From the IMG/VR virus record IMGVR_UViG_3300042321_000183: a DNA stretch of 64,000 nucleotides; one strand, 5' to 3'. The position numbers were made by a program, and so were the translations under genes. Shown here piece after piece: positions 1 through 48,016 of this stretch. The stretch comes from a virus. Taxonomy: Duplodnaviria > Heunggongvirae > Uroviricota > Caudoviricetes. How positions within the stretch are numbered: position 1 is the first letter of the stretch; each line of letters begins with the position of its first letter. The notes below the pieces were generated by a model. That model saw nothing but the letters and a program-made list of their open reading frames with translations, did no database searches and was not told the DNA's origin.

Positions 1-1677
1 ATCTTAGGCACCTATCCAAACATTAAGGATAGGATTCAATGGACTAAGGATACTATCAATAGTCTTAAACCATTGGGTAGAAAGATTATACTAGTGTCTC
101 ACTATCCTGTAGATATAGACATTCAAAACATGGTGGATTGTTATATATACGATGTGCATAATCCTTTGACTCATCACAGTTATTACACCAGGTTTTACAA
201 TGACAGACCAGACTACTTTGCTGAGATCAACATCAATGGATTGAAGAATAGTAACCAGTCATTGACTGTCTTAACTAATATATTTAATGCAGCTAAGGTT
301 GCTAAAGAGCTTGGGTTTAAGAGGTTCTTCTATACTACATATGATGTTGTATTAGATCCTAGAGATATCCCTGCAGTAAATGATGCATTCAGAACAGATA
401 AAAAGTTATATGCTGCTACCCTACCCACTCCACAGGGTAAGGGAATTCAGACCAATGGTATTATGTTTGACACAGACTTCTTCTTGAAAGAGTTTGATGA
501 TGTGCGTACACCAGAAGAATGGAACGAAGTGTGTAAGAGAAGAAGATGTGAGAACTATCTAGAAGACTATTTGTCAAAGGTTATCTTTAGCTTCAACCCA
601 AATGATATACAGTTAGTTACTAATGATAAGGATACCTTGTTAGTTCACAGTGGATTAGGTGTAGCATCAAATAGTGAGTATTATTCTATCATCCCTGTTG
701 TTGGAAAACCAAACAATTATGTGTTCTACTTCTTTACATATAACAGAGACTATAGAAACATCTATGTATCTATTGAAGATTACATGTGGAAAAGAATAAT
801 ACCAGCTAAGAACCATGAACTTGTTTATCAGTTTGAATTCAAAGGAGATCCTATAGATATTAAAATGGATTTTTATGATGGAGATGTTCAATATAAGTTG
901 GAAGAGTTTAAGCTGACCAAAGATAACTTACATAAGTACCAACACACAGGAAAGTTTGAATGGAAGAACGAAAGACCTAAGATTAAATTAGTTCATATAC
1001 AAACCACATTAAATGATGAAAGAGAACAACAAAGTAGAGCATCCCTTGAAAGAGTCAAAGACCATGGCTGGGAATATGTCATACAGTTTAACGAGCCCTA
1101 TAAGTCATTACCACCCAAGCATAACTGTCTCAGACCAGATTGTGTTTCAATGGAACTCTTCAATGAGCAACAAATTCAACAGTATGGCACTGCACTTACC
1201 CCAGCACATTATGGATGCTACGAAGCATTTAAGAATGCCATCTTAACAGAGTTTCATGATTGTGACTTCTTAATGGTGTGTGAAGGAGATTGTATCATTG
1301 AGACAGACATACACTTTTTCGTACGAAAAGTTGAGGAATGTGCACACTTATTGGTACCAAACAACATAAACTATATGTCTTTTGGAGATGCTGATACACT
1401 AGAACATGGCTGGCCACAATCACCTATTGTTAAAGATATCAATAATGAAATGTATGTAACCAATCATATCATTGGTTTACAATCTATTATGTTTCCAAAA
1501 GAGGCAGCTAAGTTTTTAAAGAACAACTTAAGAACACACAAATGGGATGCTGCTGATATGTATTTTAATAGTATCTTTGCAGGGCCTCAAATGGGAATGG
1601 TTAAGAAAAGACTTACTACCCAAGCAGATGGATTTTCTTTAATAGACAATACACATAAATCATTCAGAAAGAAATGA
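1..1677 (+). CDS. Putative glycosyltransferase, 5'-partial (GT25-like C-terminal region). The reading frame is open from window base 1; the listed start at 73 is only the first in-frame TTG
   Basis: Frame 1 has no stop codon from position 1 to 1677, so the gene is truncated by the window edge. The C-terminal part (YGCYEAFKNAILTEFHDCDFLMVCEGDCII) resembles the GCxxSH ... EDD signature region of LPS-type GT25 glycosyltransferases. Its stop overlaps the next gene's start (ATGA at 1674-1677). Confidence 0.45.
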   Translation: MLGTYPNIKDRIQWTKDTINSLKPLGRKIILVSHYPVDIDIQNMVDCYIYDVHNPLTHHSYYTRFYNDRPDYFAEININGLKNSNQSLTVLTNIFNAAKVAKELGFKRFFYTTYDVVLDPRDIPAVNDAFRTDKKLYAATLPTPQGKGIQTNGIMFDTDFFLKEFDDVRTPEEWNEVCKRRRCENYLEDYLSKVIFSFNPNDIQLVTNDKDTLLVHSGLGVASNSEYYSIIPVVGKPNNYVFYFFTYNRDYRNIYVSIEDYMWKRIIPAKNHELVYQFEFKGDPIDIKMDFYDGDVQYKLEEFKLTKDNLHKYQHTGKFEWKNERPKIKLVHIQTTLNDEREQQSRASLERVKDHGWEYVIQFNEPYKSLPPKHNCLRPDCVSMELFNEQQIQQYGTALTPAHYGCYEAFKNAILTEFHDCDFLMVCEGDCIIETDIHFFVRKVEECAHLLVPNNINYMSFGDADTLEHGWPQSPIVKDINNEMYVTNHIIGLQSIMFPKEAAKFLKNNLRTHKWDAADMYFNSIFAGPQMGMVKKRLTTQADGFSLIDNTHKSFRKK

Positions 1678-2348
1678 CAATAGATGTAATCATATTAACA
1701 GATAGCACTAATGTGGCTCTGACACAACGTACAATAGATACATTGCATGATAGTGAGATTGACTTTAGGTTTCGTGTGCAATTAGTAGACTCAGGTACAC
1801 AAGATCCAAATAGGTATGCACGTATTCATAACTATATACATCCTGAGAATTCTTTTAACTACAACAAGTTTTTAAACATAGCATTTACATATTGCCAAGG
1901 TGATTGGGTGGTTATATCTAATGATGATGTAGCTTATGAAAGATGGTGGTTCTCAGAGATGATGAAGGTACATGACTACAGAGAAGACATAGAAGCATTC
2001 TCTCCTAAAGACCCATTGTTATATGCTAGATGGTTCCCTAATCATTTTGTAGGAACTGATAGTAAGTATCATGAATCTTATGCTGTGACAGAAGCATTAC
2101 AAGGTTGGTGTACAGTGATTAAGAAGTCTGCACTAGATAAGATCTTACCATTTGATGAGTTGTTTGATATGTACTATCAAGACAACGACTATGCAGAAAG
2201 ACTAAAGCAGGCTGGTATTAAACATGCTCTTGTAAGACATTCTATTGTCTGTCATATGGAAACATTAAATGTGGGAGGTATGAGTGAAGAGAAAGAAAGG
2301 AAGTTTAGAATTGATGAAATTAAATTTAGAACCAAATGGAACCAATAA
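1674..2348 (+). CDS. Glycosyltransferase family 2 (GT-A fold)
   Basis: The N-terminus VIILTDSTN..TLHDSE resembles the VSVIIPTYN-type GT2 start. A DxD-like ISNDDV motif lies near residue 83 (about nt 1910-1935). The protein is 224 aa. It overlaps the previous gene by ATGA and the next gene by 13 nt. Confidence 0.65.
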   Translation: MTIDVIILTDSTNVALTQRTIDTLHDSEIDFRFRVQLVDSGTQDPNRYARIHNYIHPENSFNYNKFLNIAFTYCQGDWVVISNDDVAYERWWFSEMMKVHDYREDIEAFSPKDPLLYARWFPNHFVGTDSKYHESYAVTEALQGWCTVIKKSALDKILPFDELFDMYYQDNDYAERLKQAGIKHALVRHSIVCHMETLNVGGMSEEKERKFRIDEIKFRTKWNQ

Positions 2349-3358
2349 AATCAGTACATGTAGCAACAGGACTAATCACCATACCACCAAATGGATGGGG
2401 AGCTGTTGAAAGGCTTACATGGGAATATAAGGTTGCCCTTGAGAAACAAGGACATGTTGTAGATGTTAAATATATGAATGACTTAGAGAAATGGCCTAAC
2501 ACAATTGTTCATGCTCATTTAGCTAATCAAGCTTTATATTGTAGAGATAAAGGTATACCTTATGTATACTCTCTACATGATCACCACACAGAATGGTATG
2601 GTAAAGATAGCTGGGTGTTTAAGCAAAACCTAGAGGCTATGAAGCATAGCATTATATCTTTTACGCATGCTGAATATCTTATAGATTACTTTGATGCTAC
2701 AGATAAATTATTCTATCTACCACATGGGGCTAATACAGAATTCTTTACTCCTGACTATGCACCAAGACCACACTCTTTATTAATGTTAGCTAACAATGGA
2801 TTAGCAGGTGATTCTGGATATGATAGAAAAGGATTTAGATTTGGTATAGAAGCAGCTAAGTTATTAAACCTACCTATTACAATAGCTGGGCATCCTGATA
2901 ACAACAAGTTCTTTGAGATACATTCTGAGCTATTGGATTATCCAAAGTTAACTTTAAAGTTAACAAACCCTACAGATGATGAGACTAGAGAGTTATACAG
3001 ATCTAGTACAATCTTTGTACATCCATCTATGCTAGAAGCAGGACATCCTAATCTAACATTGATGGAAGCTACAGCATGTGGAGTTCCTATTGTGGGAACT
3101 TATAGAGGTAGTAAACCTATCCCTGGTATGCATGTGATTAATAAAATTACAACAGAGTCTGTGGTAGATGGTATTGTAAATGTAATACACAACTATGAAG
3201 AACGTAGACAGGCTATATTAGATAGACGTGAAGAATATAGCTGGGACAATGTAGCTAAAATCTTGGCTAAGTATTATTATAACATACTGAAGATTAATGA
3301 AGGATATACATCAGACAGAACAAGACAATTATATATAAACGCATACAACAACTTATGA
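2336..3358 (+). CDS. Glycosyltransferase family 1/4 (GT-B fold)
   Basis: A classic GT4 EX7E region (FVHPSMLEAGHPNLTLMEATACGVPIVGT) sits at about nt 3030-3095. The N-terminal Rossmann-like half (VHVATGLITIPPNGWGAVE) matches the GT4 glycine-rich start. Confidence 0.8.
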   Translation: MEPIKSVHVATGLITIPPNGWGAVERLTWEYKVALEKQGHVVDVKYMNDLEKWPNTIVHAHLANQALYCRDKGIPYVYSLHDHHTEWYGKDSWVFKQNLEAMKHSIISFTHAEYLIDYFDATDKLFYLPHGANTEFFTPDYAPRPHSLLMLANNGLAGDSGYDRKGFRFGIEAAKLLNLPITIAGHPDNNKFFEIHSELLDYPKLTLKLTNPTDDETRELYRSSTIFVHPSMLEAGHPNLTLMEATACGVPIVGTYRGSKPIPGMHVINKITTESVVDGIVNVIHNYEERRQAILDRREEYSWDNVAKILAKYYYNILKINEGYTSDRTRQLYINAYNNL

Positions 3359-3933
3359 GAGTAGAAATGTTATCCATATCAGACTTTTACAATAACCCAG
3401 ATGAGGTGAGAGCGTTTGCTATGAGTCAAGAATTTGGTGAGTCTGGTAACTATCCTGGTAGAAGAACTAAGTCTTTTCTAAATGATAGTATTAAACAAAT
3501 AATACAAGATAATATTAGACCCTTTGCAGGTGATGTAGTTTGGTGGGGAGATGATAATTCAGGTGCTTTCCAATACACAACAGCACAAGATAGATCATGG
3601 ATTCACAGTGATGGCACTACAAATTGGGCAGGTGTGTGCTATCTTACTCCTGATGCTCCTTTGTCTTCAGGCACAGGTATCTTTAGACACAAAGAAACAG
3701 GTCTTAAGAATTGGATATATACTGAACATACAGAAGAAGAAACAAAAACTGCAGCACCACATGTTGAAGGTATGGATTATACAAAGTGGGAGATGGTAGA
3801 TAGAATAGGTAATGTATATAACAGACTTATTTTATATAGAGGTGACTTATTCCATGTATCTTTGGATTACTTTGGCAAAGATCTACAAGATGGTAGACTA
3901 TTTCAAACATTCTTTTTTAATACAGAGAAATGA
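3355..3933 (+). CDS. Hypothetical protein, possible 2OG-Fe(II) oxygenase-like (HxD...H)
   Basis: The motif WIHSDG (H-x-D) is followed about 70 aa later by DLFHVS (distal His), consistent with a cupin/2OG-oxygenase facial triad. There is no convincing RxS. The assignment is tentative. ATGA overlaps at both ends. Confidence 0.4.
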   Translation: MRVEMLSISDFYNNPDEVRAFAMSQEFGESGNYPGRRTKSFLNDSIKQIIQDNIRPFAGDVVWWGDDNSGAFQYTTAQDRSWIHSDGTTNWAGVCYLTPDAPLSSGTGIFRHKETGLKNWIYTEHTEEETKTAAPHVEGMDYTKWEMVDRIGNVYNRLILYRGDLFHVSLDYFGKDLQDGRLFQTFFFNTEK

Positions 3934-5021
3934 TAACATATAACTTACACCATGTTAATGGTTTATACTTTGAACTAACAGGAGACGAAGGAAAAGATAG
4001 AGAGTATGATATACAGTTTGTAGATAGAAAAGGTAAGGTGGATGGTATGTTTACAGATCAACACATAACTATCTATGAAACAAAACTAAAGCCAGGAGCA
4101 TGGGCTAGACTTAATAGAAAGTATCTATCTGACATAGCCATCTTTGTCAAATACCAAGGACGTACAGTTAAGCAAATCAACATATTAGATGAGGTGAAAG
4201 GAAAGAGAGTGTTTATATCTTTTGAAAGTAAATCATTAGGAGATAGCATTGCCTGGATGCCCTATTGTTTAAAGTTTAAAGAAGTGTATGATTGTCATGT
4301 TATTGTATCCACGTTCAGGAATGAACTATTCAAAGATGTATATCCTGAATTAGAGTTTGTAGGAAGAGGACAGTCTGTTCCTAATATAATTGCAATGATG
4401 GAGATTGGCTGGTATTGGGATGAATCAAAAGAACCTGTACATCCTGCCACTATACCATTACAACAGGCAGCTAGTAATATCTTGTGCTTAGAGCATGAAG
4501 AGTTACAGCCTAGGATTGCATTCACTCCTAAAGAAAGACCTGCAGTTAATGAATATATTTGTATCTCCACTAGATCTACAGCTCAGTGTAAGCACTGGTA
4601 TTACTGGCCAGAACTAATACAAACACTAAAGATTAAAGGATATAGAGTGTTTGAACTATCTCAGGAAGCAGATGACTATGGAGCAGAGAAGTTAGAAGAT
4701 ACATCTCTTGAGAATGTAATGAACTATCTGTGGTATGCAGATACATACATAGGATTATCTAGTGGAATCAGTTGGCTCAATTGGGGATTAGGTAAGCAAG
4801 GAGTTATGATATCTAACTTCACAACAGAAGACCATGAGTTTCAAAACAACTGTATACGCATAACTAATAAGGATGTATGTAATGGATGTTGGAACAATCC
4901 TATGTTCAAGTTTAACAAAGGAGACTGGATGTGGTGTCCTGAAAATGAAAATACTCCTAGACATTTTGAATGTCATAAGAGTATTTCAGTAAATGATGTT
5001 ATGTCTAAACTTCCTATTTAA
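3930..5021 (+). CDS. GT9-like glycosyltransferase (heptosyltransferase fold) with an N-terminal extension
   Basis: FISFESKSLGDSIAWMPYCLKFKE matches the GT9 ...GDxxxxxP... N-domain signature (nt ~4232-4262). The C-terminal YIGLSSGISWLNWGLGKQGVMI resembles the GT9 ...DSGpmHlAaAlg...v.lfg segment. Confidence 0.55.
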   Translation: MITYNLHHVNGLYFELTGDEGKDREYDIQFVDRKGKVDGMFTDQHITIYETKLKPGAWARLNRKYLSDIAIFVKYQGRTVKQINILDEVKGKRVFISFESKSLGDSIAWMPYCLKFKEVYDCHVIVSTFRNELFKDVYPELEFVGRGQSVPNIIAMMEIGWYWDESKEPVHPATIPLQQAASNILCLEHEELQPRIAFTPKERPAVNEYICISTRSTAQCKHWYYWPELIQTLKIKGYRVFELSQEADDYGAEKLEDTSLENVMNYLWYADTYIGLSSGISWLNWGLGKQGVMISNFTTEDHEFQNNCIRITNKDVCNGCWNNPMFKFNKGDWMWCPENENTPRHFECHKSISVNDVMSKLPI

Positions 5022-5616
5022 AAGGAATTCCTCCTATCCACAATACCAATGATCTTCTCACTCCCTTTGTAACTGGTGTCACTCTGTGCATCATGTATGA
5101 AGGAAATATAAATACAACTCCTTTTCCTTTAGGTGCTTTATCTGCATTTTCAGGTGGACCACCTTTCCAATATTCTAATTCACCTCCTTCATATTCACTA
5201 GGATCAGATAATTGTACAGTGATGCTTATCTTTCTTCTTGATAACCAACCTGGTCCAAGATCTTGATGCCAATCATAATGTCCACCATCCTCAGCATGAT
5301 ATTCTGTATATTGAATATTATCTAATACACTATGTAAATCAAAGTTCCATAAAGATTTATTTGCTTCGACAATCATTCCCATTAATCTTGCATATACCCA
5401 CTCCCACTTATCTTCTTGGGGAATCCATTTTATCTTTGATGATCTTACCTTCTTATCCTGAATATTATCATCTCCTGTCCCAGCATCCATAAAAGGAAGA
5501 GTGGCAACATCTTGATAAATTTGATTCAATGCATTATCATCAAATCCATGTTTAAACCAATAATAGTTTTGAACATCTATTTCTTTTTGAGGAAAGACTA
5601 ATGTTTTGTTTTTCAT
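5014..5616 (-). CDS. 2OG-Fe(II) oxygenase, prolyl-4-hydroxylase-like (P4Hc / 2OG-FeII_Oxy_3 type)
   Basis: HYDWHQD (HxD, nt ~5262-5295), YMMHRVTPVTKGVRRSLVLW (distal His plus RxS, nt ~5075-5110) and KISITVQLS...GGELEY form the full P4H-type motif set. The gene is on the same strand as the collagen-like fibers and immediately downstream of them. Its 3' end overlaps the + strand GT9 gene by 8 nt (convergent). Confidence 0.75.
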   Translation of the reverse strand: MKNKTLVFPQKEIDVQNYYWFKHGFDDNALNQIYQDVATLPFMDAGTGDDNIQDKKVRSSKIKWIPQEDKWEWVYARLMGMIVEANKSLWNFDLHSVLDNIQYTEYHAEDGGHYDWHQDLGPGWLSRRKISITVQLSDPSEYEGGELEYWKGGPPENADKAPKGKGVVFIFPSYMMHRVTPVTKGVRRSLVLWIGGIPFK

Positions 5617-5673
5617 ATTAAATAATTAAGGGTACAAAGATAGTTAATCCTTGCACCCTTTCCAAAAATTGTT

Positions 5674-6069
5674 TTATTCTCCTATCTGACCTCCTGGTGA
5701 GTTTGGAAGTTTTGTAGGATCTACTTCTTCAGTGACTAGTCGATTAGGAAGTTGGAATGCTTCAAGTTCATCTTTCTCAAGCTTCTTAGCCATGTAATCA
5801 TCCAACCTAGAGTTTATAAAATCTACAGGAAGAATAGCATCTAACCATGTAAATATTTGTTCCTGAGTGAGATTTTGATATTCTGTAAAGCTTGTAGGAT
5901 TTGCAGGAGCTAATTTAAACTCACCAAAGTAATGAACATCATGTTGTATATCATTTACAATTTGCTTAAGACTTCTTCTGTAATAAACTTTCTTTATTAC
6001 ATTTGTTAATCCATCAGCAGACTTAGCTATCTTTAAATCCTGTATCCCCCATCTATATTCTTTTGACAT
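5674..6069 (-). CDS. Hypothetical protein (131 aa) downstream of fiber gene
   Basis: An ORF lies 2 nt after the stop of the fiber gene 6072..8906. No motifs were recognised. Confidence 0.55.
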   Translation of the reverse strand: MSKEYRWGIQDLKIAKSADGLTNVIKKVYYRRSLKQIVNDIQHDVHYFGEFKLAPANPTSFTEYQNLTQEQIFTWLDAILPVDFINSRLDDYMAKKLEKDELEAFQLPNRLVTEEVDPTKLPNSPGGQIGE

Positions 6070-6071
6070 AA

Positions 6072-8906
6072 TTATATATTTTCTAAGTTACCTAAACGTG
6101 TTTCTAATGTTGCAATCTTGGCTTCTAAAGTTAAGACTCTTGCCTCTATAGCATCTACTTTCTGATCTTCTTCTTTCAAACCTTCTGTAAGTAAAGCTGT
6201 CATCTTATCATAAGCAATACCATATACATCTGTATCTTCATGATAATGTACAAACTCTGGCAATGTTTTCTCAACCTCTTGTGCTACAAAACCAATCTCT
6301 CTTCTCTTAGTAATATCTTCAATTCTGTTATAAGATACACCTTGTAAGCCTTTAAGTTTATCAAGAGAGTTTTCTAATGGAGCAAAGTTTTCTTTAAGTC
6401 TAACATCAGAAGTAGGTACAAAGGATACAGCAAACATATTATATGTAGCATAAGACTCTGATGTATAATACATTGTACCATTCGTAGTACAAGCAGCCCA
6501 GTTTACAGTGGTGCTTCCACGAATACCCCAACCATTGTTACCAGCACTATAATAATGTCCCCAGCTATAACTATTAGAATACAATCCATAATCACCACCA
6601 GCTGACATCAATTGATGATATACACCAGCTGTTGTTGTTTGATAACCAGCCCATCCATTATTAGCTGTTGTTGTTACAACAGAACCATATGTTTGTACAC
6701 CTTGACTCAATCCACCAACAACACCTGTAGGTCCTTGTGGTCCTGTTGGTCCTGTTGGTCCTGGAGGCCCACCTGGACCTTGAGGTCCTTGTGGTCCTGT
6801 TGCACCTTGTGGTCCTTGTGCACCTTGAGGACCAGTAGGGCCTGGTCCACCTGTTGCACCTTGTGGTCCAGTTGCTCCTTGTGGTCCAGTTGGGCCAGGT
6901 CCACCTGTTGGACCTTGAGGACCTGTAGCTCCATTGGCTCCAGATGTACCTGATGAACCAGCCTTTCCAGAAGAGCCTGAAGAACCAGAAGAACCAGAAG
7001 ATCCTGAAGTTCCAGAGCTTCCACTACTTCCTGAACTTCCACTTGATCCACTCGTACCACTTGTACCACTAGATGCACTAGTTCCAGATGATCCATTCTT
7101 TCCAGAACTACCATCTGTACCAGAAGAACCACTTGAAGCTGATGTACCAGAACTTCCATTAGTACCTGAAGAACCTGATGTTCCACTTGTTCCTGTTGTT
7201 CCACTTGTTCCACTAGAGCCATCTGTTCCACTTGAACCACTAGTTCCAGAAGAAGCAGAAGTACCACTAGTACCACTTGATCCATCAGTGCCAGACGATC
7301 CACTTGTACCAGATGAGCCATCAGTACCAGAAGTACCAGACGATCCATCAGTACCACTTGATCCACTAGAAGCAGATGTTCCACTAGACCCATCAGTGCC
7401 TGATGTACCTGATGTACCAGAGGAAGCTGACGTACCACTAGATGCTGAAGTTCCACTTGATCCTGACGTTCCTGAAGAACCATCAGTACCAGACGAACCA
7501 TTAGTACCTGTAGTGCCAGATGTTCCACTCGTACCTGAAGTACCAGAAGATCCACTTATACCATTAAATTCAAAATAGAATTGATCATTATCATTAGGAT
7601 CTGTACCACCTGATCCTAATTGTGTTACAGTGAATTCTTCAAATCCTGTTTGATTAGGAAGAAGAGCATCTATTCTTAAAATCTTGAATGTATTCTTATC
7701 ACTAACATATACAAGTTTTATAATAGAGTTGTTCTGTAATGTATCTAGGTATGTACCAAAGTTTACGCTTGGAGAGTATGATTGATTGTCAATAGCAATT
7801 GCTGTTACGCTTGCTCCCCATGTTGCAGAGTTTAATCTAAAATATCCACTACCTGGGTCTGTGCTTGTATCTGTGTTTGTAGAGAATCTCCATATAGCAA
7901 GATTACCATCAATACCATCTGCACCACTAGTACCTGAAGATCCATCACCTCCAGCAGCACCACCTAAGTTTACATCCCATGCTGCATAAGTACCACTACC
8001 AGTAGTAGCAGTTACGTTTACAGACATTGCACCTGATCCAGAATTATAAGATATAATATCACCACCCATGCTATTGCTTAGATCATAAGCAAGAACTACA
8101 ACCTGTCCCACTGTGTAAGATAAACCTGTACCAACAGTAAGATTCTTTGTACCTGTTCCTATTGCTAATGATGTAGTTGATGTTGTTTTATATAAGTCTC
8201 CAGAAAGACCTGCAGTACCTGCACTACCACTTGAACCAGAAGTTCCAGAGGAACCACTAGAAGCTGACGTACCAGATGAGCCACTTGTTGCACTTGTACC
8301 AGAAGAACCATCACTACCACTCGTACCTGATGTACCAGTAGTTCCTGCAGTTCCACTTGAGCCATCTGTTCCTGATGTACCACTAGATCCATCTGTTCCA
8401 GATGTGCCAGAAGATCCACTAGAAGCAGAAGTACCTGAGCTACCAGATGAACCACTTGATCCACTCGATCCACTTGTACCAGTAGATCCAGACGTAGCAG
8501 ATGTTCCAGATGAACCATCAGTTCCTGAAGATCCACTTGTTCCTGAAGATGCTGATGTACCACTAGAGCCATCAGTGCCACTAGTACCTGCACTTCCACT
8601 TGTTCCTGAACTACCATCAGTTCCACTAGAACCTGAGGTTCCTGTTGAACCACTAGATCCAGCAGTTCCAGACGTACCACTTGTTCCATCCTCACCAGGA
8701 GCAGCTGAAGTTACAACAGTCCAACTAGTAAATGTACCAGCTCCTAAATAACTAACTGGTTCAAATATGAATTGTCCTGTTCCTGAATTATATGATACAA
8801 CTTGACCAAACATATAGTTGTTCTCATCATGTATCACTTGGACATATTGTCCAGGAATAAACGTAAGACCTGTCTGAATGGTTATTGTAATGTTACTATA
8901 AGGCAT
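6072..8906 (-). CDS. Collagen-like tail fiber protein with a C-terminal peptidase S74 (endosialidase-type) intramolecular chaperone domain
   Basis: There are long G-X-Y arrays ([14 protein letters not shown]...). A genuine Pro-rich collagen stretch [22 protein letters not shown]... lies at nt ~6722-6935. The C-terminus [13 protein letters not shown]...[15 protein letters not shown] matches the S74 autoproteolytic chaperone (SDxRLKxNI ... iGfIAQE) at nt ~6072-6421. Confidence 0.85.
6950..7560 (-). repeat. Codon-level tandem repeat (9-nt/18-nt periodicity) encoding a G-S/T-S/T collagen-like array
   Basis: Reiterated gtaccagaagaacca / ggtacttctgg-type units are visible by eye. Arrays of the same kind occur at 8195-8705, 9000-9380, 9830-10290, 10530-10840, 51530-51840 and 52080-52500. 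Confidence 0.8.
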
Positions 8907-8930
8907 TTTTATTTCTTTATTTATTTATTA

Positions 8931-10991
8931 TTAAGGTGCAGTGGTTGTTGTAGTTGTAGTTCCTTCTGAAGGAGGTATAGTGATTGAATCTCCACTTGTA
9001 CCAAGACTTGTTGTTGATGTTCCAGATGTACCTACAGTACCACTAGTTCCTGTTGTTCCTGCTGTACCTGTTGTTCCTGCTGTTCCAGAAGACCCATCAG
9101 TTCCACTAGTTCCACTCGTTCCACTCGTACCAGAACTTCCATCAGTGCCACTAGTGCCAGATGATCCATCACTACCAGAGCTAGCTGAAGTTCCAGATGA
9201 TCCTGACGTACCTGCAGTACCTGATGTACCTGTGCTACCACTAGTACCTGCAGTGCCTGAGCTACCATCTGTACCTGATGTACCTGAGCTAGCACTTGTT
9301 CCAGAAGATCCAGAAGTTCCACTTGATGCAGAAGTACCAGATGTGCCAGTTGTTCCACTTGTACCAGATGTACCTGAAACAGCAACACCCACTTGCTTAG
9401 CAGTTAATATTATTGAAGGAGCAGCTGGAGATGCATAAGGAGAAACTTGTGCAGGTTTAGCAACAAGTTGAACTGTTGAATCAGCAGATGCAAAGACAAA
9501 CTGTACATAATCATTAGCTTGTAGATTAAATATATAAGCAATAGTAGGAATGTATTCCACCTCTGTTTGCTGTATTTCTATAAATGAATTTGAATTAGCT
9601 ACATCAAAGCCATTGATTCTAGGCCATATCTGTACCTCAGCAATTGGAGATGTTGTTTTACTAACCTGTGCTGAGAAGATGAATTCATATTGACCAGGAT
9701 GTGAAACTGTTACTCTTGAGCTAGCCACTACAGAAATACCATAAGATAAACTTGTAGTGTCAAACGTCCATATTGTAGGAGTATTCACTCCAAGCAATGG
9801 TTGTGTTTGTGTACTAGAGAACTCTCCATACCAGTTAGCAATAGCTGCACCTGTACTACCATCTTTACCAGACGATCCAGATGTTCCATTAGTTCCACTT
9901 GTACCACTTGTTCCACTCGTTCCACTTGATGCAGACGTTCCACTTGTTCCAGAAGATCCATTAGTACCTGATGAACCATCAGTTCCAGATGAACCATTTG
10001 TTCCAGAGGTACCAGATGTACCATTGCTACCATCAGTACCATTTGTTCCTGATGTTCCATTAGAACCAGCTGTGCCAGAGGTACCAGAAGTACCAGCAGT
10101 TCCAGAACTACCATCAGTACCTGATGAGCCAGAAGTACCTGAAGATGCAGATGTTCCTGAGCTTCCATTAGTTCCACTAGATCCACTAGTAGCACTTGTA
10201 CCTGAACTACCACTTGAGCCAGAAGACCCACTTGTAGCAGAGGTACCAGAAGAGCCTGATGTTCCACTAGAACCATCACCACCTGCTGCACCTACAAGGT
10301 TAACAGACCAGATAGAATATGTTCCAGATCCTACTAATACATCAGGTGCTGCAAATTGTAAAGCTCCTGTTCCAGAAATATATGAAATAACTACGCTATG
10401 TTGATAATTAAATTGATTATTTGCTATGAGCACAGATTGACCCACTGTGTATGCTAAGCCAGTTCCTACTGTTATTGTACCTGCATTACCTAAAGTAAAA
10501 GGTGTAGTTGAGAAGGTAGCATATCTATCACCAGCAAGACCAGAGCTACCTGATGTGCCACTAGATCCACTAGTTCCTCCAGTGCCTGATGAACCAGATG
10601 TAGCTGATGAACCAGATGTTCCAGATGAACCTGATGTACCACTCGATCCAGAAGAACCTGAAGTACCTGATGAGCCTGAACTACCAGAAGTACCTGATGT
10701 TCCAGATTTACCAGACGTACCACTTGATCCAGAGGAACCAGAAGATGCAGACGTACCACTTGTACCAGATTTACCACTGCTACCAGAACTGCCAGATGTG
10801 CCACTAGCTCCAGAAGTACCTGACGTACCATAGCCATTTGTAGCAAATGCAGCATTAATCTTCTGTATTACAGTTTGTAAATTGTCATTAGTATTAATAC
10901 CACTAAATACCAAGTTAGGACCTTCGTAGAAAACGCAGGTGCTATCTAGTATAATTGGGCACTGTTGTGCATTACAAGTAATGTTAGCCAT
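8931..10991 (-). CDS. Collagen-like fiber protein (G-X-Y with Ser/Thr), no S74 domain
   Basis: Three G-X-Y arrays are separated by non-repeat beta-rich modules. The N-terminal Cys-containing module (CNAQQCP...FYEGPNLVFSGINTNDNLQTVIQKINAAF) is shared with ORF 50899..52797. The ~70-aa TVGTGLAYTVGQ...GSGTYSIWSVNL module is shared with the two other fibers. The protein ends in a poly-Thr tail. Confidence 0.8.
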   Translation of the reverse strand: MANITCNAQQCPIILDSTCVFYEGPNLVFSGINTNDNLQTVIQKINAAFATNGYGTSGTSGASGTSGSSGSSGKSGTSGTSASSGSSGSSGTSGKSGTSGTSGSSGSSGTSGSSGSSGTSGSSGTSGSSATSGSSGTGGTSGSSGTSGSSGLAGDRYATFSTTPFTLGNAGTITVGTGLAYTVGQSVLIANNQFNYQHSVVISYISGTGALQFAAPDVLVGSGTYSIWSVNLVGAAGGDGSSGTSGSSGTSATSGSSGSSGSSGTSATSGSSGTNGSSGTSASSGTSGSSGTDGSSGTAGTSGTSGTAGSNGTSGTNGTDGSNGTSGTSGTNGSSGTDGSSGTNGSSGTSGTSASSGTSGTSGTSGTNGTSGSSGKDGSTGAAIANWYGEFSSTQTQPLLGVNTPTIWTFDTTSLSYGISVVASSRVTVSHPGQYEFIFSAQVSKTTSPIAEVQIWPRINGFDVANSNSFIEIQQTEVEYIPTIAYIFNLQANDYVQFVFASADSTVQLVAKPAQVSPYASPAAPSIILTAKQVGVAVSGTSGTSGTTGTSGTSASSGTSGSSGTSASSGTSGTDGSSGTAGTSGSTGTSGTAGTSGSSGTSASSGSDGSSGTSGTDGSSGTSGTSGTSGTDGSSGTAGTTGTAGTTGTSGTVGTSGTSTTSLGTSGDSITIPPSEGTTTTTTTAP

Positions 10992-11160: not shown

Positions 11161-14100
11161 CTATCTATTTTGTTTCTGTATGGTTATGTCAAACTCTGTA
11201 GCAAACTCAGGGCTAAATATAGCTCCATAAGTTAAGAAAGATTTAGTTACAGGAGCTGCTTTCATTAAGTACTTGATAGGTCTTGCTTTCTTTCTAGCTT
11301 CTTCATCTGTTGTGCTTGGATCAAAGTCCATGCCTGTTGTTTCTATAAAGAAGTGTCTTGTAAACTTAGTTACATCATCTAATAGACCAATTGCTGGGAA
11401 GATGCTACCACTAGCTAGCTTTTGTACCTCAGCAGGATTGTAGAAGAATGAAAGCTCACCTACAAATCTATCAACTACCTTTTGACTATATCTATGGAAG
11501 TTTCTAGAAGCTCTATCTCCTTCATCATCATCTGGGGCCATTACACCAAGAGCAAGCATTGCTCCAAACAAAGATAACAAGATAGTTAATTCCTTAAGCT
11601 GGTTACGTAAGTTGTTTCTAACCATATCTATAAAGTCATCCTTAGACATAGTCATTTCTTCACCAGTTCTTTTTTTGAACTCCTGAGCGTATTCAAAGAA
11701 CATTCTATCAAGCTCTGCAATACCAGCATCATTCATAGCAAGAATGTCCTTAATATAATTACTACGTTCCATTATAGATCTTCCTAATACAGAACCTAGC
11801 AGACGAAGCCTACCAATATCATAACTTTCTCCTTCTATACCTTCTTCTCCAAACTCTACAGAGAAGTCATTTGATACCTTTCTAAATTCAGAGAAACGTG
11901 TATCAGCAAGTTTAGGAATCCATCTTTTAAATACCATCATACTAGCTGTCCAAATAGACATACCCATTCTGTTCATGTTTTCCTTGCTAGTATTACCAGT
12001 TGCTGCTTCAGATAGACGTCTACTTAATAACCCCAGTCTTTGTAACTCTTTCTTGTTGCTTAGATCCAAACCAGGGATGACTAACTTGCCATCTTCCATC
12101 TTTGATGTAACAGCAATAGATTTGTCTTTCTTTAACTCCTCTATCTCCTTCTCTATCAAAGGTTTAGTTTCTCTATATCTAGCTTGACTAGAGTTACGAT
12201 CTTTATATTTGTTTTTTACATATTTAGGAATACTCACAATCTTACCATCTACCACCATTGTGTTTTCTAATAATGTAAAGAAGGTTGCCTTTTCTGCATG
12301 TTGTTCAGGATACTTCATAAAGATCATTAACATGTCTCCTAGATTGTTCTGAGTTAATGTAGTTAAACCTGCTTTCTTAAATAGCTCATAAGAAGGGTCT
12401 TCTGAAAGAGGTAAGAATGTATTAAGTAGTTGAACAAACTTTTCTTTATCACCTACATTTTGTAATAAAAGCTTTGCTTCATTCTTAGCAAACTCTCTAG
12501 CTTTGAAGTATTCTCCTGCTTGTGCAGCCATCTGAATGTTTGTACCAAATGCATTGACAGCACCTGATAAAAACTCAAGACCAAGAGTCTTTATTTGGAA
12601 TCCTCTATTCATAGCATCCATGGTTTTAATCATAGATGTTGCTGACACTTCTTCATTTGGTTTAAACACTTCTCTTCCAGCTATAGAGTTAACTACACCT
12701 TTCATACCATTTACCACCTTGCCAAAGTACAAAGGAGTGTCAGTATCAGATAGTACATACTTTTGTTCATAGAAGACAGCTCTTGTAAACTCATCTAAGG
12801 TCTTCATGTTTTCAGCGTTACCTGTCATCACCTTAGGTTCACCATCATCATCCAATACAATATTACTCACTCTATCCACAGCAAGGTGAGCGTTCTTAAA
12901 TTCTTCAATTGTACTTAAGAACTTAACTTGTTCTTCTACCTCTGTTAGATATTTGTATTTATTAATCTGTTGGATGTACAAAATCATGTTCTTAAATAAG
13001 TCTTCACTCACCTCAGAATAATCATTTACACCATCTGTATTTGTAAAGTCATATGTATAATACTTAGGTATAGAGTTTTCCATCTTACCTGTAATCTCAT
13101 CAAACTTACCATATCCTACATCATCAGGATTAATCTTTAAGCTTTGATAGAAGTTTTCCATTACAGATAACTTACCATCCCAAACAAGACTCTCTGCCAT
13201 TGTTTTTCTAACAAATGGTAAGAAGAAAGAAGATATAGAGTTTTGAATAAACCCTTCATCTTTAGCTTTTTTATTAGTCTTACTAATGAAGTTATACAAT
13301 GCAAATAGATCTGGATCATTCTTAATGTCCTTATACTCAGCTGATTCCCACTTACTTAAAGGATGGTTTTTAATGATGTAGTTGTTCCAACCATTAAAGT
13401 CCTTTCTAGTTATGTCATACTTACGACTCTCTTGAATAATTGCTTTCTCTCTTTTCTCTACAATCTCTGGACTGTTACCAGGGAAGTCATCATTGATACG
13501 CTTAAGATTCTTTTCTAACACAGCATCAGCTTCTTTCTTATATGCTTCTATATCAATGTTATTTTTAAGCCAAGTTATATCTCCTCCTGCTGCAGCTCTG
13601 GCATCAACCTCACTACGAAACTTTTCATCATATTTGTAGATCAGTCTGTTTATCCATTGTCCCTTCTCATCCTTTTGATATACCTTTTTGATAGTTTGTC
13701 TGATATCACCACCTCTTTTAACAAACCTCTCTCTGATCTCCATTAGCTCTTTAATCTCTTCTAAGGAATCAGCATTAGCATTGCTTCTAGCTTGTCTATT
13801 TAATTTAGCAAGTACGTTCAAAGATCTTTGTCCAAGGTCTTCTACACCTCTAAAGTTAGCAGCCAATCCTTTTGTAACAACCTCAGGTTTGGTTAATCCT
13901 GTTGTTAAGTTTCTTTGACCTATATGTTTATCTGCAAACTTAAAAGCAATGTCAATAAGCTCTTGCTTAGACTTGTAGATGTTCTTAGCTTCCTTTTCAA
14001 GGTTAGCTCTTAATTCTCTTAACTCAGTAAGTAACTTTTTATCTTCATCAGTCTTAGCGTCTATTTCCATCTCAGGACTATATATAAGATCACCAATCTC

Positions 14101-16395: not shown

Positions 16396-16406
16396 TTGGA
16401 TTGATT

Positions 16407-31438: not shown

Positions 31439-31514
31439 AATACAAAATTAATTTAAAATATTAGAATTACCAAGAGCTATAACAAATTTTAGTAATTCAC
31501 TATAACTTAATTAG

Positions 31515-34391: not shown

Positions 34392-34411
34392 ATTATACTC
34401 TATTGTATGAT

Positions 34412-38445: not shown

Positions 38446-38455
38446 TTATATTATT

Positions 38456-38890
38456 TTAAACGCAAGGACAACTTGAAGCAGATAAAGTATTGTTAATTGT
38501 TAAACTTGGATAGGCAATAGTCATGGCTGATAGTAATCCTTGAGCAACATATTGATAACAGTTTGCTGTAGGTGTATTAGTATCTTGTACATTTCCTGTT
38601 GTTATTAATCCTATCTTATAATACTCATCTCCTGTATCACATCTTGTATATACAAATATGTAAGGATCATCAAGAGGCATGTCTACATAATTAACACACG
38701 CTCCTGTAGATTTAACTCTACAGATTGTTGTAAAATCAGGAACAGCACTTGATAAATATCCTGCAAGCAAAGACGCTTTAGGAACTGCTAATGCAAATGC
38801 TACAGCATAAGTGTCTGCATCTGAAAAAAGATCAAAAGGACCAGTGTTTGCTCCTGCAAAATTTAAACTTATTGTTGCTGAAAATGGCAT
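38456..38890 (-). CDS. Hypothetical 144-aa protein with a shared N-terminal anchor module (family A)
   Basis: MPFSATISLNFAGANTGPFDLFSDADTYAVAFALAVPKASLLAGYLSSAVPDFTTICRVKSTGACVNYVDMPL aligns with MTVLVTLTLAGTDVGPFNLYSNVDGYTTAIASGVSRAALVAGYNLLNVPDNASVIRVQSTGTCTNYLDILL of ORF 48017..48646. Confidence 0.6.
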   Translation of the reverse strand: MPFSATISLNFAGANTGPFDLFSDADTYAVAFALAVPKASLLAGYLSSAVPDFTTICRVKSTGACVNYVDMPLDDPYIFVYTRCDTGDEYYKIGLITTGNVQDTNTPTANCYQYVAQGLLSAMTIAYPSLTINNTLSASSCPCV

Positions 38891-38911
38891 ATTATTTTAT
38901 TTTATATTATT

Positions 38912-45371: not shown

Positions 45372-45377
45372 GTTCTT

Positions 45378-47940: not shown

Positions 47941-47954
47941 AGTTAGAGTTTAAA

Positions 47955-47985: not shown

Positions 47986-48016
47986 AGACCATCTGTAAAC
48001 CAACAAACAGGGGTTT

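Follow-up and report, generated by a model that had tools for sequence, protein, structure and literature searches.

A TibC-like glycosyltransferase cassette beside collagen-like fibre genes of a freshwater crAss-like phage: a candidate system for tail fibre glycosylation

A freshwater crAss-like phage, whose capsid is of the crAss type, probably encodes a system that glycosylates its own tail fibres in the cytoplasm of its host, as judged from homology and gene neighbourhood. The fibres are probably coated with sugars, because a TibC-like enzyme adjoins Gly-Ser/Thr triplet proteins both in other phages and in unrelated bacteria. The stretch of DNA analysed (hereafter called the window) is 64,000 nucleotides long, and its relevant features are as follows.

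1..1677, plus strand: C-terminal 558 codons of an 887-aa three-domain glycosyltransferase that starts 986 nt to the left of the window (L001 5085-7748)
1674..2348, plus strand: GT2-type glycosyltransferase, 224 aa (PF00535, 24.5 bits, cutoff 23.3), starting in an ATGA overlap
2336..3358, plus strand: GT4 (GT-B) glycosyltransferase, 340 aa (PF00534, 39.1 bits; PF13692, 38.8 bits)
3355..3933, plus strand: DUF6445 protein, 192 aa, predicted 2OG-Fe(II) oxygenase (PF20043, 52.5 bits)
3930..5021, plus strand: TibC/AAH-family protein O-glycosyltransferase, 363 aa (TIGR04414; TibC, 4rap)
5014..5616, minus strand: prolyl-hydroxylase-type 2OG-Fe(II) oxygenase, 200 aa (PF13640, 57.6 bits)
5628..5660, minus strand: hairpin with a 14-bp stem, between the DUF7936 and PF13640 genes (L001 11731-11699)
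5674..6069, minus strand: DUF7936 protein of the fibre module, 131 aa (PF25590, 45.4 bits)
6072..8906, minus strand: collagen-like tail fibre, 944 aa, putative substrate (Pfam Collagen, Peptidase_S74)
8931..10991, minus strand: collagen-like tail fibre, 686 aa, putative substrate (Pfam Collagen)
50899..52797, minus strand: third (G-T/S-S)n fibre, 632 aa, 83 triplets, approximately 40 kb from the cassette

All the open reading frames of the first-pass annotation were found at their coordinates, and the translational coupling it had noted is evident from ATGA overlaps at 1674, 3355 and 3930 and from a 13-nt overlap at 2336. The cassette had been taken to comprise five genes, but the left edge of the window interrupts it, and seven genes are present on the plus strand of the full 108-kb contig (L001). 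They code for a GT9 enzyme (308 aa), a 2OG-FeII_Oxy_5 protein (Oxy5, 231 aa) and the 887-aa glycosyltransferase, followed by the four complete genes of the window. The cassette forms an island oriented opposite to the flanking lysis and fibre modules, and its last gene, coding for the TibC-like enzyme, converges with the PF13640 gene, their 3' ends overlapping by 8 nt.

The 3930..5021 protein, initially called GT9-like, is indeed predicted to be a glycosyltransferase, and more exactly belongs to the TibC/AAH protein O-heptosyltransferase family. It passes the NCBIfam equivalog TIGR04414 (autotransporter O-heptosyltransferase; 231.6 bits for a cutoff of 200), and its residues 57-361 match TibC (PDB 4rap; E = 1.2e-40), an enzyme that glycosylates proteins rather than lipopolysaccharide (LPS). 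The catalytic Asp (D105, TibC D110), T217, K221 and W282 (TibC T226, K230 and W305) and all four Cys residues of the iron finger (C317, C320, C336 and C348) are conserved, the roles of the TibC residues being taken from PMC4358343. As a point against fibre glycosylation, the known substrates of TibC/AAH enzymes harbour beta-helical 19-residue repeats, whereas the putative acceptor here is composed of G-X-Y triplets. In the phage enzyme, Val also stands in place of the adenine-contacting Arg-286 of TibC, and the beta-hairpin thumb on which the TibC dodecamer depends is missing; the enzyme may therefore use another donor and adopt another quaternary structure than TibC. Among relatives, the TibC-like domain is found fused with GT4, GT2, the N-terminal domain of the 887-aa glycosyltransferase, FkbM or DUF6165, which indicates that the enzymes of the cassette work in a single pathway.

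The two fibres next to the cassette match the Pfam Collagen model with 173.8 bits (6072..8906) and 149.2 bits (8931..10991). Their description as Gly-X-Y proteins built mainly of G-S/T-S/T triplets holds, with 144 and 104 triplets, respectively, nearly all of them G-[TS]-[S]. In the 944-aa fibre, whose triplets were counted in runs of at least 5, X is Thr or Ser in 107 of 144 cases and Y is Ser in 84 of 144, and the protein ends with a Peptidase_S74 intramolecular chaperone domain. The reported Gly-Pro-X stretch of this fibre lies inside a 40-triplet run (aa 614-733), with 16 Pro residues at X and 3 at Y. The 104 triplets of the 686-aa fibre are of the G-T/S-S type and devoid of Pro, and its C-terminal tail is poly-Thr. 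The 944-aa fibre is the only one of the three to harbour Pro within triplets. The distant 632-aa fibre could be modified in trans.

Relatives of the TibC-like gene were found in at least 574 viral contigs. Collagen-like ORFs are present in 51 of 80 viral TibC-like loci, and in 26 of the 30 loci with full 10-kb flanks, at a median distance of approximately 2 kb; as a rough baseline, they are found in 4 of 59 loci centred on the large terminase gene. Ser and Thr occupy 78% (median) of the X and Y positions of these ORFs, some of which have 850-950 triplets. At the four full-flank loci that lack such an ORF, its place is taken by genes for (T-P-T)n mucin-like proteins or for Ser/Thr-rich proteins with beta-helix repeats. 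The cultured Microcystis phage Mel-JY01 encodes an FkbM-TibC fusion, and 1.7 kb upstream of this fusion gene lies the end of a (GTS)n ORF that is at least 1016 aa long. As a point against fibre glycosylation, (GTS)n fibres also occur in some phages whose examined flank contains no TibC-like gene, as in locus L152. The viral loci are diverged (45-78% identity, contigs of 5-322 kb and many distinct gene fusions), and synteny among related phages is not independent evidence.

The same pairing occurs in bacterial genomes. In 10 of 10 loci with bacterial-like G+C contents (0.45-0.66), no more than 250 bp separate the TibC-like gene from a (G-T/S-S/A)n ORF. These loci belong to Methylobacter, Methylococcales, Polaromonas, betaproteobacterial, Arenicellales and gammaproteobacterial genomes or MAGs, two being Methylobacter chromosomes, and in Methylobacter luteus the pair is surrounded by housekeeping genes. 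Most of the triplet proteins whose sequences were read harbour a signal peptide or a lipobox. Across 17 genome loci, 17 collagen-like segments are found within 2 kb of the TibC-like gene (83 kb of sequence), versus 6 in the remaining 218 kb.

The window ORF 73..1677 is the C-terminal portion of the 887-aa protein (P0255, 100% identical), whose N-terminus, a Glycos_transf_1 domain (PF00534, 37.9 bits, residues 168-278), is encoded to the left of the window; the part in the window consists of a middle domain with no assigned fold and a C-terminal domain with a weak GT25 hint. Its initial assignment as GT25-like could not be verified: the window sequence has no Pfam match, PF01755 is touched by 2 of 12 diverse homologues (E = 0.012), and a profile search of PDB sequences gave no match. 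An AlphaFold2 model was poor (pLDDT 55.8). Homologues of some part of this protein are present in 76 of 80 TibC-like loci, often fused to the TibC-like gene. The GT2 protein also matches the phrog_22332 glycosyltransferase (1.6e-10) and is fused with GT4 and TibC-like domains in L048, L049, L064 and L070, and GT4 is found in 56 of 80 related loci, many of which code for GT4-TibC-like fusions of approximately 700 aa. Sugar-modifying genes of the relatives include those for FkbM and CmcI methyltransferases, DegT, PglD-like proteins and a NoeE-like sulfotransferase.

We propose that the G-[TS]-[S]-rich fibre chains, encoded on the strand of the structural genes, would be synthesised in the cytoplasm of the host, and that the TibC/AAH-family GT-B enzyme would initiate modification by transferring sugar from a nucleotide sugar to Ser (or Thr) hydroxyls of the triplets, before the chains trimerise. 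The upstream GT9, the 887-aa multidomain glycosyltransferase, GT2 and GT4 would then lengthen the first sugar into an oligosaccharide, which in relatives may additionally be methylated, sulfated, or aminated and acetylated. The three 2OG oxygenases would represent a clade-specific add-on, hydroxylating either the glycan or, in the 944-aa fibre, the Gly-Pro-X segment. The end product would be a fibre with a glycan sheath, whose sugars could replace the missing Pro or hydroxyproline by keeping a Pro-poor triple helix stable and hydrated, and which could confer protease resistance or adhesion. The analysis shows the family and the conserved catalytic residues of the TibC-like enzyme, the solubility of the cassette proteins and the recurrent pairing of the enzyme with triplet-repeat genes; from these we infer which molecule accepts the sugar, which sugar is donated, in what order the steps run and what they bring about.

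The first-pass annotation had proposed that the fibres are both glycosylated and hydroxylated. Glycosylation of Ser/Thr triplets gains support from TIGR04414 membership and from the recurrent pairing with triplet proteins, whereas hydroxylation of Pro fares less well. The P4H-type oxygenase and the second HxD..H protein that it described are both recognisable. The former matches PF13640 (2OG-FeII_Oxy_3; cutoff 27 bits) and phrog_61 (8e-33), with invariant H117, D119, H177 and R187; the latter is a DUF6445 protein that shares the fold of the former, with H84, D86, H167 and R181 invariant in 36 homologues. The oxygenases are accessory to the cassette: PF13640 homologues are present in 24 of 80 related loci, and Oxy5 and DUF6445 in 10 of 80 each.

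Hydroxylation of the Gly-Pro-X prolines by PF13640, Oxy5 and DUF6445 in a collagen-like manner, which is compatible with fibre glycosylation, is possible though doubtful. The PF13640 family profile matches PiuC/Sbal_3634 (1e-10), Chlamydomonas P4H (5.5e-5) and other P4H (3e-4 to 5e-3), and the gene sits between cassette and fibres whichever strand it occupies; in relatives L005 and L014 it shares the strand of the cassette. All 10 loci with the three oxygenases have 7-39 G-P-X triplets, and in 31 of 32 oxygenase-free loci Pro occurs fewer than 5 times in up to 954 triplets. However, the former 10 loci form a single clade, and the correlation thus amounts to approximately one evolutionary event, while loci with PF13640 alone (L052-L059, L036) have only 1-4 Pro. 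The canonical target of collagen prolyl 4-hydroxylation is the Y position, and the prevalence of Pro at X in the 944-aa fibre leaves 4 X-Pro-Gly sites inside triplets. The nearest solved structures are PiuC/YbiX-type PKHD hydroxylases, whose substrate is undefined, and phrog_61-type oxygenases are common among aquatic phages in general. In Foldseek, the PDB entries listed as matching the AlphaFold2 model of DUF6445 (pLDDT 76) are 2OG oxygenases, namely PKHD hydroxylases, HygX/EvdO1, OGFOD1 and PHD2 (E from 3e-4, TM 0.4-0.56), and the model resembles the sugar-acting HygX and EvdO1 equally well.

It is unlikely that the cassette instead acts on a glycan of the host envelope, remodelling the core or O-chain of LPS, the capsule or some other surface glycoconjugate and thereby blocking superinfection or preventing re-adsorption of the progeny to lysed cells. 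Such clusters of aquatic phages are by default read as O-chain modification systems (PMC7029224). GT9, GT4 and GT2 are classical LPS or polysaccharide families, the sugar-modifying genes of the relatives are typical of polysaccharide clusters, and the cassette is an inverted island between the lysis and fibre modules. The upstream GT9 scores alike for LPS heptosyltransferases I-III and for TibC (approximately 45 bits each, all below cutoff), which counts against fibre glycosylation. So does the fact that tail-fibre regions are known hot spots of accessory genes, which makes adjacency to fibre genes alone weak evidence. On the other hand, the conserved anchor gene codes for an equivalog-level member of a protein-glycosylating family, and the TibC-like/(GTS)n pairing is also found in bacterial chromosomes, away from any phage fibre hot spot. 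The cassette proteins are all predicted to be soluble: none of them harbours a membrane segment (top KD19 of 1.19, versus 2.39 for the neighbouring holin-like control), and no Wzx, Wzy, phosphoglycosyltransferase or oligosaccharyltransferase was identified among the cassette families scanned, which fits with direct cytoplasmic protein glycosylation. Membrane topology of the glycosyltransferases was part of one of the refutations named in the first-pass annotation, and this check thus came out negative.

One homologue was binned in a Crocinitomicaceae MAG, which, with the crAss-type capsid, points to Bacteroidota as the likely host phylum. To our knowledge, heptose is usually absent from the LPS of this phylum, a point against fibre glycosylation, and no heptose-pathway genes were seen in the regions examined.

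That the TibC-like enzyme targets a different protein, be it the capsid, one of the giant internal proteins or a host surface protein with similar repeats, appears improbable. In its favour, the TibC/AAH family is protein-specific, glycosyltransferases of mycobacteriophages are reported to act on major capsid proteins (Freeman 2023, via PMC11256854), additional Ser/Thr-rich proteins are encoded in the window, and bacteria pair TibC-like enzymes with (GTS)n proteins that they export, making a host protein of this type a conceivable target. Nevertheless, hundreds of G-T/S-S triplets are available on the fibres, which recur as neighbours across many architectures, and where no collagen-like ORF is found another hyper-repetitive Ser/Thr-rich structural protein adjoins the enzyme. 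Hypermodification of the phage DNA by hydroxylation then glycosylation, which would evade restriction, follows the logic of TET/JBP and base-J type pathways, and phage glycosyltransferases are often presumed to act on DNA (PMC10202952), but it is most improbable, as the anchor enzyme comes from a family that O-glycosylates proteins, most loci keep the glycosyltransferase core without oxygenases, and the PF13640 protein and profile and the DUF6445 model match only protein or small-molecule hydroxylases, with no AlkB, TET or JBP entry among the matches listed. Oxygenases of the TET/JBP type had been named in the first-pass annotation as a refutation of fibre modification, and this check also came out negative.

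The first-pass annotation held that no such module had been described for a tailed phage, which must be qualified, since phage-encoded glycosyltransferases are reported to glycosylate virions of mycobacteriophages, at the capsid (Freeman 2023, as related in PMC11256854); we found no report in the literature of a TibC-type enzyme modifying a fibre or collagen.

The hairpin at 5628..5660 sets the fibre genes apart from the PF13640 oxygenase gene. It may represent a terminator or a processing site, and its tail lacks a clean T-run. In L005, L012, L088 and L089, too, a counterpart of the adjacent DUF7936 gene lies next to fibre genes or between them.

The DNA derives from an uncultured tailed phage of the crAss type with a G+C content of ~35%. 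Most of the window, 11161..63942 (-), represents the structural module of a crAss-like phage. The proteins of this module and those discussed below are as follows.

Features of the window
73..1677, C-terminal part of an 887-residue glycosyltransferase
3355..3933 (+), DUF6445 protein
3930..5021 (+), TibC-like enzyme, 363 residues
5014..5616 (-), PF13640 oxygenase
6072..8906 (-), collagen-like fibre, 944 residues
8931..10991 (-), collagen-like fibre, 686 residues
16407..28844 (-), giant virion-type ORF, 4145 residues
within 11161..63942 (-), giant virion-type ORFs of 1853 and 1744 residues
45854..46591 (-), tail ring protein 2
50899..52797 (-), third fibre, 632 residues
58087..59640 (-), Crassvirus major capsid protein (Crass_capsid, PF23898, 96.8 bits)
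61609..63942 (-), portal protein

At its N-terminus, the 1744-residue protein is similar to a 'DarB-like' protein and to proteins from gut crAss-like phages. A search for tRNA genes that might point to the host found none. One homologue of a cassette protein is included in a Crocinitomicaceae metagenome-assembled genome (MAG) bin which, together with its fit with the crAss-like capsid, is a weak hint of a Bacteroidota host.

All the ORFs listed in the first-pass annotation are present, and the start-to-stop overlaps that couple the cassette genes of the plus strand translationally were confirmed. The five genes described are real, but they are part of a larger set truncated by the window edge, as the window opens with the last 558 codons of the 887-residue glycosyltransferase. 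We read the missing part from a matching 108,443-bp ENA metagenome contig (2 mismatches in 15 kb), which harbours seven genes in the order GT9 (308 residues), 2OG-FeII_Oxy_5 (hereafter Oxy5), 887-residue glycosyltransferase, GT2, GT4, DUF6445 and TibC-like. A hairpin with a 14-bp stem and a tail that is not a clean T-run (5628..5660) separates the DUF7936 gene, on the fibre side, from the PF13640 oxygenase gene; its role may be that of a terminator, an attenuator or a processing site. Given this hairpin and the location of the PF13640 gene on the cassette strand in relatives, we consider that gene as belonging to the accessory cassette, not to the fibre operon.

The last gene of the cassette was initially described as GT9-like. 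Its product scores below the Pfam GT9 cutoff and belongs specifically to the TibC/AAH family, as it matches the NCBIfam equivalog TIGR04414 ('autotransporter strand-loop-strand O-heptosyltransferase') with 231.6 bits for a cutoff of 200, over model positions 30-370 of 374, and phmmer aligned it with the sequence of the TibC crystal structure (4rap) at E = 1.2e-40. TibC and AAH are cytoplasmic enzymes that transfer heptose onto many Ser residues of repetitive adhesins encoded next door, and the catalytic base (Asp-110), the donor ligands (Thr-226, Lys-230 and Trp-305) and a four-cysteine iron finger of TibC have been defined (PMC4358343). The catalytic Asp, the β-phosphate-binding Thr and Lys and the sugar-contacting Trp correspond to D105, T217, K221 and W282, and the iron-finger residues Cys-339, 342, 358 and 370 to C317, C320, C336 and C348. 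All are invariant in our alignment of TibC-like homologues, including one at 37% identity, and the iron finger is also found in the Microcystis phage Mel-JY01. In contrast, Arg-286 of TibC, which contacts N1 of the adenine and is linked to ADP-sugar specificity, is a Val in the window protein according to a pairwise HMMER alignment. It is not an Arg in the homologues either, as read from the alignment and from the Methylobacter sequence, which makes the donor nucleotide sugar uncertain. The β-hairpin thumb that builds the dodecamer ring of TibC (Phe-265/Val-266) falls in an alignment gap, with ~10 residues lacking counterparts. Because the key residues are kept but the adenine-contacting Arg and the thumb are lost, we treat the protein as a family member whose donor sugar and oligomeric state are uncertain.

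An AIDA-type autotransporter partner with 19-residue strand-loop-strand repeats was not found at the TibC-like loci. The enzyme gene is instead flanked by genes for collagen-like fibres in phages and for (GTS)n proteins with signal peptides in bacteria, and these G-X-Y repeat neighbours suggest a distinct subfamily whose acceptor differs.

TibC-like enzymes are rare in deposited phage genomes (four records, ~34% identity), but metagenomes yielded 931 such proteins, and at least 574 IMG/VR contigs encode one. We mapped 80 viral loci (45-78% identity, on contigs of 5 to 322 kb). Their conserved core comprises the TibC-like gene, a GT4, the N-terminal GT4-like domain of the 887-residue protein, a short GT9 and DUF6165. 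GT4-TibC, GT2-GT4-TibC, FkbM-GT-TibC and TibC-DUF6165 fusions, as well as fusions of the 887-residue glycosyltransferase with TibC, show that the fused enzymes act as one pathway. The cassettes of relatives also encode FkbM and CmcI methyltransferases, additional GT2s, and DegT- and PglD-like enzymes.

Collagen-like ORFs were counted as stop-to-stop segments, so that giant Met-free (GTS)n ORFs, such as that of the viral locus L035, were included. Such ORFs are present in 51 of the 80 viral loci and in 26 of the 30 with complete flanks, at a median distance of ~2 kb from the enzyme gene and with Ser or Thr at 78% of the X and Y positions (median); the largest contain 850-950 triplets. In the other four loci with complete flanks, (Thr-Pro-Thr)n mucin-like proteins or Ser/Thr-rich proteins with β-helix repeats adjoin the enzyme. 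For comparison, only 4 of 59 loci around an unrelated terminase gene harbour a collagen-like ORF, a rough baseline, as this set started from the Mel-JY01 terminase and covers a narrow phylogenetic range, and as the TibC-like gene of Mel-JY01 itself is less than 10 kb from that terminase gene. A relative of Mel-JY01 (L152, 2-3644 (+)) has large (GTS)n fibres, but the 6 kb that separate them from the terminase gene contain no TibC-like gene; the enzyme is thus not always encoded beside such fibres. At loci devoid of collagen-like ORFs, proteins with long (T-P-T-x)n mucin-like linkers adjoin TibC-like fusion genes, and L073 also codes for a 1158-residue protein composed of 'STIGGGxxNxA' repeats similar to the head regions of trimeric autotransporter adhesins. 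The intervals concerned are L061 849-4058 (-), L073 4810-6600 (-) and L073 16998-20471 (-).

A genome scan with one genome per species revealed 17 TibC-like loci (33-39% identity), 10 of which have a bacterial-like G+C content (0.45-0.66). Their sources are Methylobacter luteus and a complete Methylobacter chromosome, plus MAGs of Methylococcales, Polaromonas, betaproteobacterial, Arenicellales and gammaproteobacterial origin. Without exception, a (G-T/S-S/A)n ORF lies no more than 250 bp from the TibC-like gene at these ten loci, and most of the bacterial repeat proteins that we read harbour a signal peptide or a lipobox. The enzyme-repeat pair of Methylobacter luteus is surrounded by housekeeping genes. 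Summed over the 17 genome loci, the 83 kb lying up to 2 kb from the enzyme gene contain 17 collagen-like segments, and the rest (218 kb) contains 6. Such two-gene units, from methanotrophs, Polaromonas, Arenicellales and other bacteria, are those of loci L091 (8914-11116), L092, L094, L095, L098-L101, L103 and L104. In the Methylobacter repeat protein, a conserved domain containing Cys (…LLVIPCVDV…HYNVVM…) occurs twice.

A similar pairing occurs in the cultured Microcystis phage Mel-JY01, in which a (GTS)n ORF of ≥1016 residues ends 1.7 kb upstream of the gene for a 1226-residue FkbM-TibC fusion. We favour the fibres as the acceptor mainly because the bacterial and Mel-JY01 pairings are independent of synteny within the lineage of the window. 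The Mel-JY01 ORF (locus L007, PP395634.1 2-3052 (+)) runs off the start of the record, and GenBank reports antisense CDSs there (1-651 and 739-2298 (-)) plus a short plus-strand fragment. The antisense CDSs look like mis-annotations caused by the open antisense frames of the repeat.

The three fibres of the window contain 144 (944-residue fibre), 104 (686-residue fibre) and 83 (third fibre) Gly-X-Y triplets, in which X and Y are almost all Ser or Thr. In the first two, Thr or Ser predominates at X and Ser at Y; these two match the Pfam Collagen HMM (PF01391) with 173.8 and 149.2 bits, respectively, and many PHROG tail-fibre families as well. The Gly-Pro-X stretch noted initially is genuine: in the triplets of these two fibres, Pro residues are confined to a run of 40 triplets (residues 614-733 of the 944-residue fibre), with 16 at X and 3 at Y. 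There are four X-Pro-Gly sites, i.e. with Pro at Y, inside the triplets of that fibre, no Pro in the triplets of the 686-residue fibre and one in those of the third. A Peptidase_S74 intramolecular trimerisation chaperone forms the C-terminal end of the 944-residue fibre. The third, (G-T/S-S)n fibre, encoded 40 kb away from the cassette, has an unusual Cys-rich N-terminus (CSSCYPNPNPCY...CGCCGG...CGC). A nucleotide search of GenBank phage records with the 11-kb region yielded a single match, 203 nt of the Gly-Pro-X segment, in a 735-kb megaphage. The segment (window 6724..6926) has 76.7% nucleotide similarity to this megaphage, LR756501, which also harbours a TibC-like gene, 187 kb from the match.

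The main rival explanation is that the cassette modifies the lipopolysaccharide (LPS) of the host. Gtr enzymes are membrane proteins that use undecaprenyl-linked sugars as substrates. Like GtrABC-type systems and the 'LPS-related' glycosyltransferase clusters of pelagimyophages, the cassette adjoins tail-fibre genes in a hypervariable region, and LPS modification is the default interpretation in the literature for such clusters (PMC7029224). However, the cassette proteins are all soluble, with a maximal KD score of 1.19 for hydrophobic 19-mers, unlike the adjacent holin-like protein, which does contain a membrane-like segment, and the anchor enzyme belongs to a protein-specific family. In addition, searches of the window cassette and of the genes that recur in the cassettes of relatives found no Pfam family of flippases, polymerases, initiating phosphoglycosyltransferases or oligosaccharyltransferases. 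Devoid of membrane or Und-P-type proteins, this gene set fits the stepwise glycosylation of a cytoplasmic acceptor. Modification of the LPS core would be compatible with soluble enzymes, yet we consider a host-LPS function unlikely overall.

The GT25-like label of the first-pass annotation was not confirmed, as PF01755 does not match the window sequence and gives a marginal match (E = 0.012) with 2 of 12 homologues. A profile of the C-terminal domain of the 887-residue glycosyltransferase had no match in the PDB, and PDB sequence searches with the 534-residue ORF and with the DUF6445 protein returned nothing meaningful. The AlphaFold2 model of the 887-residue protein (pLDDT 55.8, below 50 in the C-terminal domain, from a shallow alignment at ≥79% identity) was left out of the fold search.

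The protein encoded at 5014..5616 is indeed of the prolyl-hydroxylase type (PF13640, 57.6 bits for a cutoff of 27), and its HxD motif, distal His and basic residue (H117, D119, H177 and R187) are invariant in our alignment of PF13640 homologues. The second putative oxygenase corresponds to DUF6445 and has a similar set of motifs. Compared with the PDB, the PF13640 family profile matched the PKHD hydroxylases PiuC/Sbal_3634 best (1e-10), followed by a Chlamydomonas prolyl 4-hydroxylase (5.5e-5) and further prolyl 4-hydroxylases (3e-4 to 5e-3); a literature search for the function of PiuC found nothing. The Foldseek matches listed for the DUF6445 model (pLDDT 76) are protein or small-molecule 2OG oxygenases only, and the protein is as similar to the sugar-acting oxygenases HygX and EvdO1 as to prolyl hydroxylases. 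With no TET/JBP enzymes among these matches or among the sequence and profile matches of PF13640, the alternative that the cassette hypermodifies DNA has no support.

PF13640, Oxy5 and DUF6445 homologues are found in 24, 10 and 10 of the 80 viral loci, respectively; the oxygenases are accessory components. All three are present in 10 loci, each with 7-39 Gly-Pro-X triplets in its fibres, whereas in 31 of the 32 oxygenase-free loci there are fewer than 5 Pro residues in up to 954 triplets. The 10 three-oxygenase loci form a single clade, and therefore the Fisher test of oxygenases against Pro triplets (p = 6e-5) is invalid as a test of independence. Collagen prolyl 4-hydroxylases target Pro at the Y position. 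While the co-occurrence agrees with the proposal that the oxygenases hydroxylate fibre prolines, its restriction to one clade, the presence of only 1-4 Pro in PF13640-only loci and the location of Pro mostly at X speak against it, and judging from these sequences we find this activity doubtful.

Returning to glycosylation of the fibres by the cassette, we infer the following sequence of events. Fibre chains would be synthesised in the cytoplasm, and the TibC-like enzyme would add the first sugar to Ser or Thr residues of the triplets before trimerisation. The glycan would then be lengthened by the other soluble transferases and, in relatives, also methylated and sulfated. The oxygenases may hydroxylate the Gly-Pro-X segment or the glycan, and trimerisation would be driven by the C-terminal S74 chaperone. 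The likely benefit, by analogy with BclA and with worm cuticle collagen, whose Thr residues are galactosylated, would lie in stabilising and hydrating a triple helix that lacks Pro, and in protease resistance or adhesion. What the sequences establish is the family membership, the conserved residues, the solubility of the proteins and the pairing of the genes, from which we deduce the acceptor, the donor, the order of events and the benefit.

Parts of this scheme have known counterparts. The TibC-TibA and AAH-AIDA-I systems (BAHT; 4rap/4rb4; PMC4358343) share with it a soluble, cytoplasmic enzyme of the same family at the equivalog level and an adjacent gene for a repetitive Ser-rich protein, with hyperglycosylation before assembly or export known for TibC and proposed here. 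Besides the missing Arg-286 and thumb, our loci differ in that the candidate substrate is a collagen-like G-X-Y protein (phage fibre or bacterial lipoprotein) rather than a β-helical autotransporter with 19-residue repeats. Moreover, the phage enzyme forms part of a cassette of several glycosyltransferases, with which it is often fused and which are accompanied by methyl- and sulfotransferases and oxygenases, a context that suggests an oligosaccharide rather than single heptoses. PMC8968730 describes BclA, of the Bacillus anthracis/cereus exosporium, as having O-glycosylated collagen-like GXT repeats, whose sugars are thought to aid hydration and stability of the Hyp-free triple helix. Both are prokaryotic collagen-like filaments with Thr-rich triplets, with O-glycans known in BclA and predicted here, but BclA triplets are Pro-rich (GPT), whereas most triplets here are devoid of Pro. 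To our knowledge, the BclA enzymes and spore-surface context are unrelated to the present system. In mimivirus, Lys is hydroxylated and the hydroxylysine is then glucosylated; in contrast, Lys is nearly absent from the window fibres, and the glycosyltransferase belongs to a Ser/Thr O-linking family. Mimivirus, for which a hydroxylase/glycosyltransferase acting in collagen modification has been reported (Luther 2011, cited in PMC8968730), and Chlorella virus with its prolyl 4-hydroxylase are similar in combining collagen-like proteins with 2OG-oxygenase and glycosyltransferase enzymes for them, but they are eukaryote-infecting giant viruses. Finally, the mycobacteriophages Che8 and Rita glycosylate their virions, on major capsid proteins, as summarised in PMC11256854 (from Freeman 2023). 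As proposed here, these tailed phages use their own glycosyltransferases to modify their own virion proteins in the host cytoplasm; however, the targets are capsid proteins, TibC-family enzymes, oxygenases and sulfation genes are absent, and the hosts are Actinobacteria.

The initial claim that no such module had been described for a tailed phage thus stands in part: our literature searches did not turn up TibC-type enzymes described either from phages or in a pairing with collagen-like proteins, but mycobacteriophage capsid glycosylation was already known. With protein hyperglycosylation by TibC/AAH and glycosylated collagen-like proteins also on record, we class the present system as a variant of these, not as a new category.

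Taken together, these data bring just short of probable the reading that the loci represent a widespread and previously unrecognised class of post-translational modification system, in which a distinct subfamily of TibC-type O-glycosyltransferases would specialise in collagen-like (Gly-Ser/Thr-Ser/Thr)n repeats. Its minimal form, in bacteria, may be a two-gene unit of exported repeat protein and enzyme, which we hold with the same slight reserve. It is equally tenable, though still tentative, that the cassettes of many aquatic phages, enlarged by further glycosyltransferases, methyl- and sulfotransferases and prolyl-hydroxylase-like oxygenases, turn Pro-free fibres of up to >3000 residues into glycan-stabilised collagen/mucin-hybrid filaments. 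Many 'LPS-type' clusters beside phage fibre genes might likewise modify virions rather than hosts, a possibility that we rate a little below an even balance. If true, phage virion glycosylation, currently documented for mycobacteriophage capsids, would also include the receptor-binding fibres of phages that are abundant in the environment, the TibC/AAH family would gain collagen-like triplets as an acceptor class, and the routine host O-antigen interpretation of glycosyltransferase clusters beside tail-fibre genes would need revisiting. Sugars in place of hydroxyproline could explain how Pro-free Gly-Ser/Thr triplets make stable fibres, which would be relevant to how host range is determined, to fibre stability and to engineered collagen-like materials. 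Direct tests are feasible, as the enzyme-repeat pairing is found in two cultured systems, Microcystis phage Mel-JY01 and Methylobacter luteus IMV-B-3098.

A few additional genes recur in the viral cassettes. DUF6165 (122 residues) is encoded alongside the TibC-like gene in 47 of the 80 viral loci (e.g. 3034-3402 (-) on L001, the contig holding the window, and L042 11050-11418) and is fused to the C-terminus of the TibC-like gene product in L069 (4748-9502); it is probably a functional partner of the enzyme. Genes for an APS kinase, a small HxGH nucleotidyltransferase, a NoeE-like carbohydrate sulfotransferase and SAM methyltransferases are found in L005/L006 (2734-4831), L008, L013-L021, L048-L051, L063, L073 and L076. 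The nucleotidyltransferase is possibly a mini ATP-sulfurylase, and the set suggests phage-encoded PAPS synthesis and sulfated, methylated glycans in these related cassettes. Lastly, in one viral clade (L060 4241-6976 (+) and relatives), a 912-residue ORF directly downstream of the TibC-like fusion gene harbours several Hint/intein-type domains (AXH, Intein_splicing, Hint and PT-HINT).
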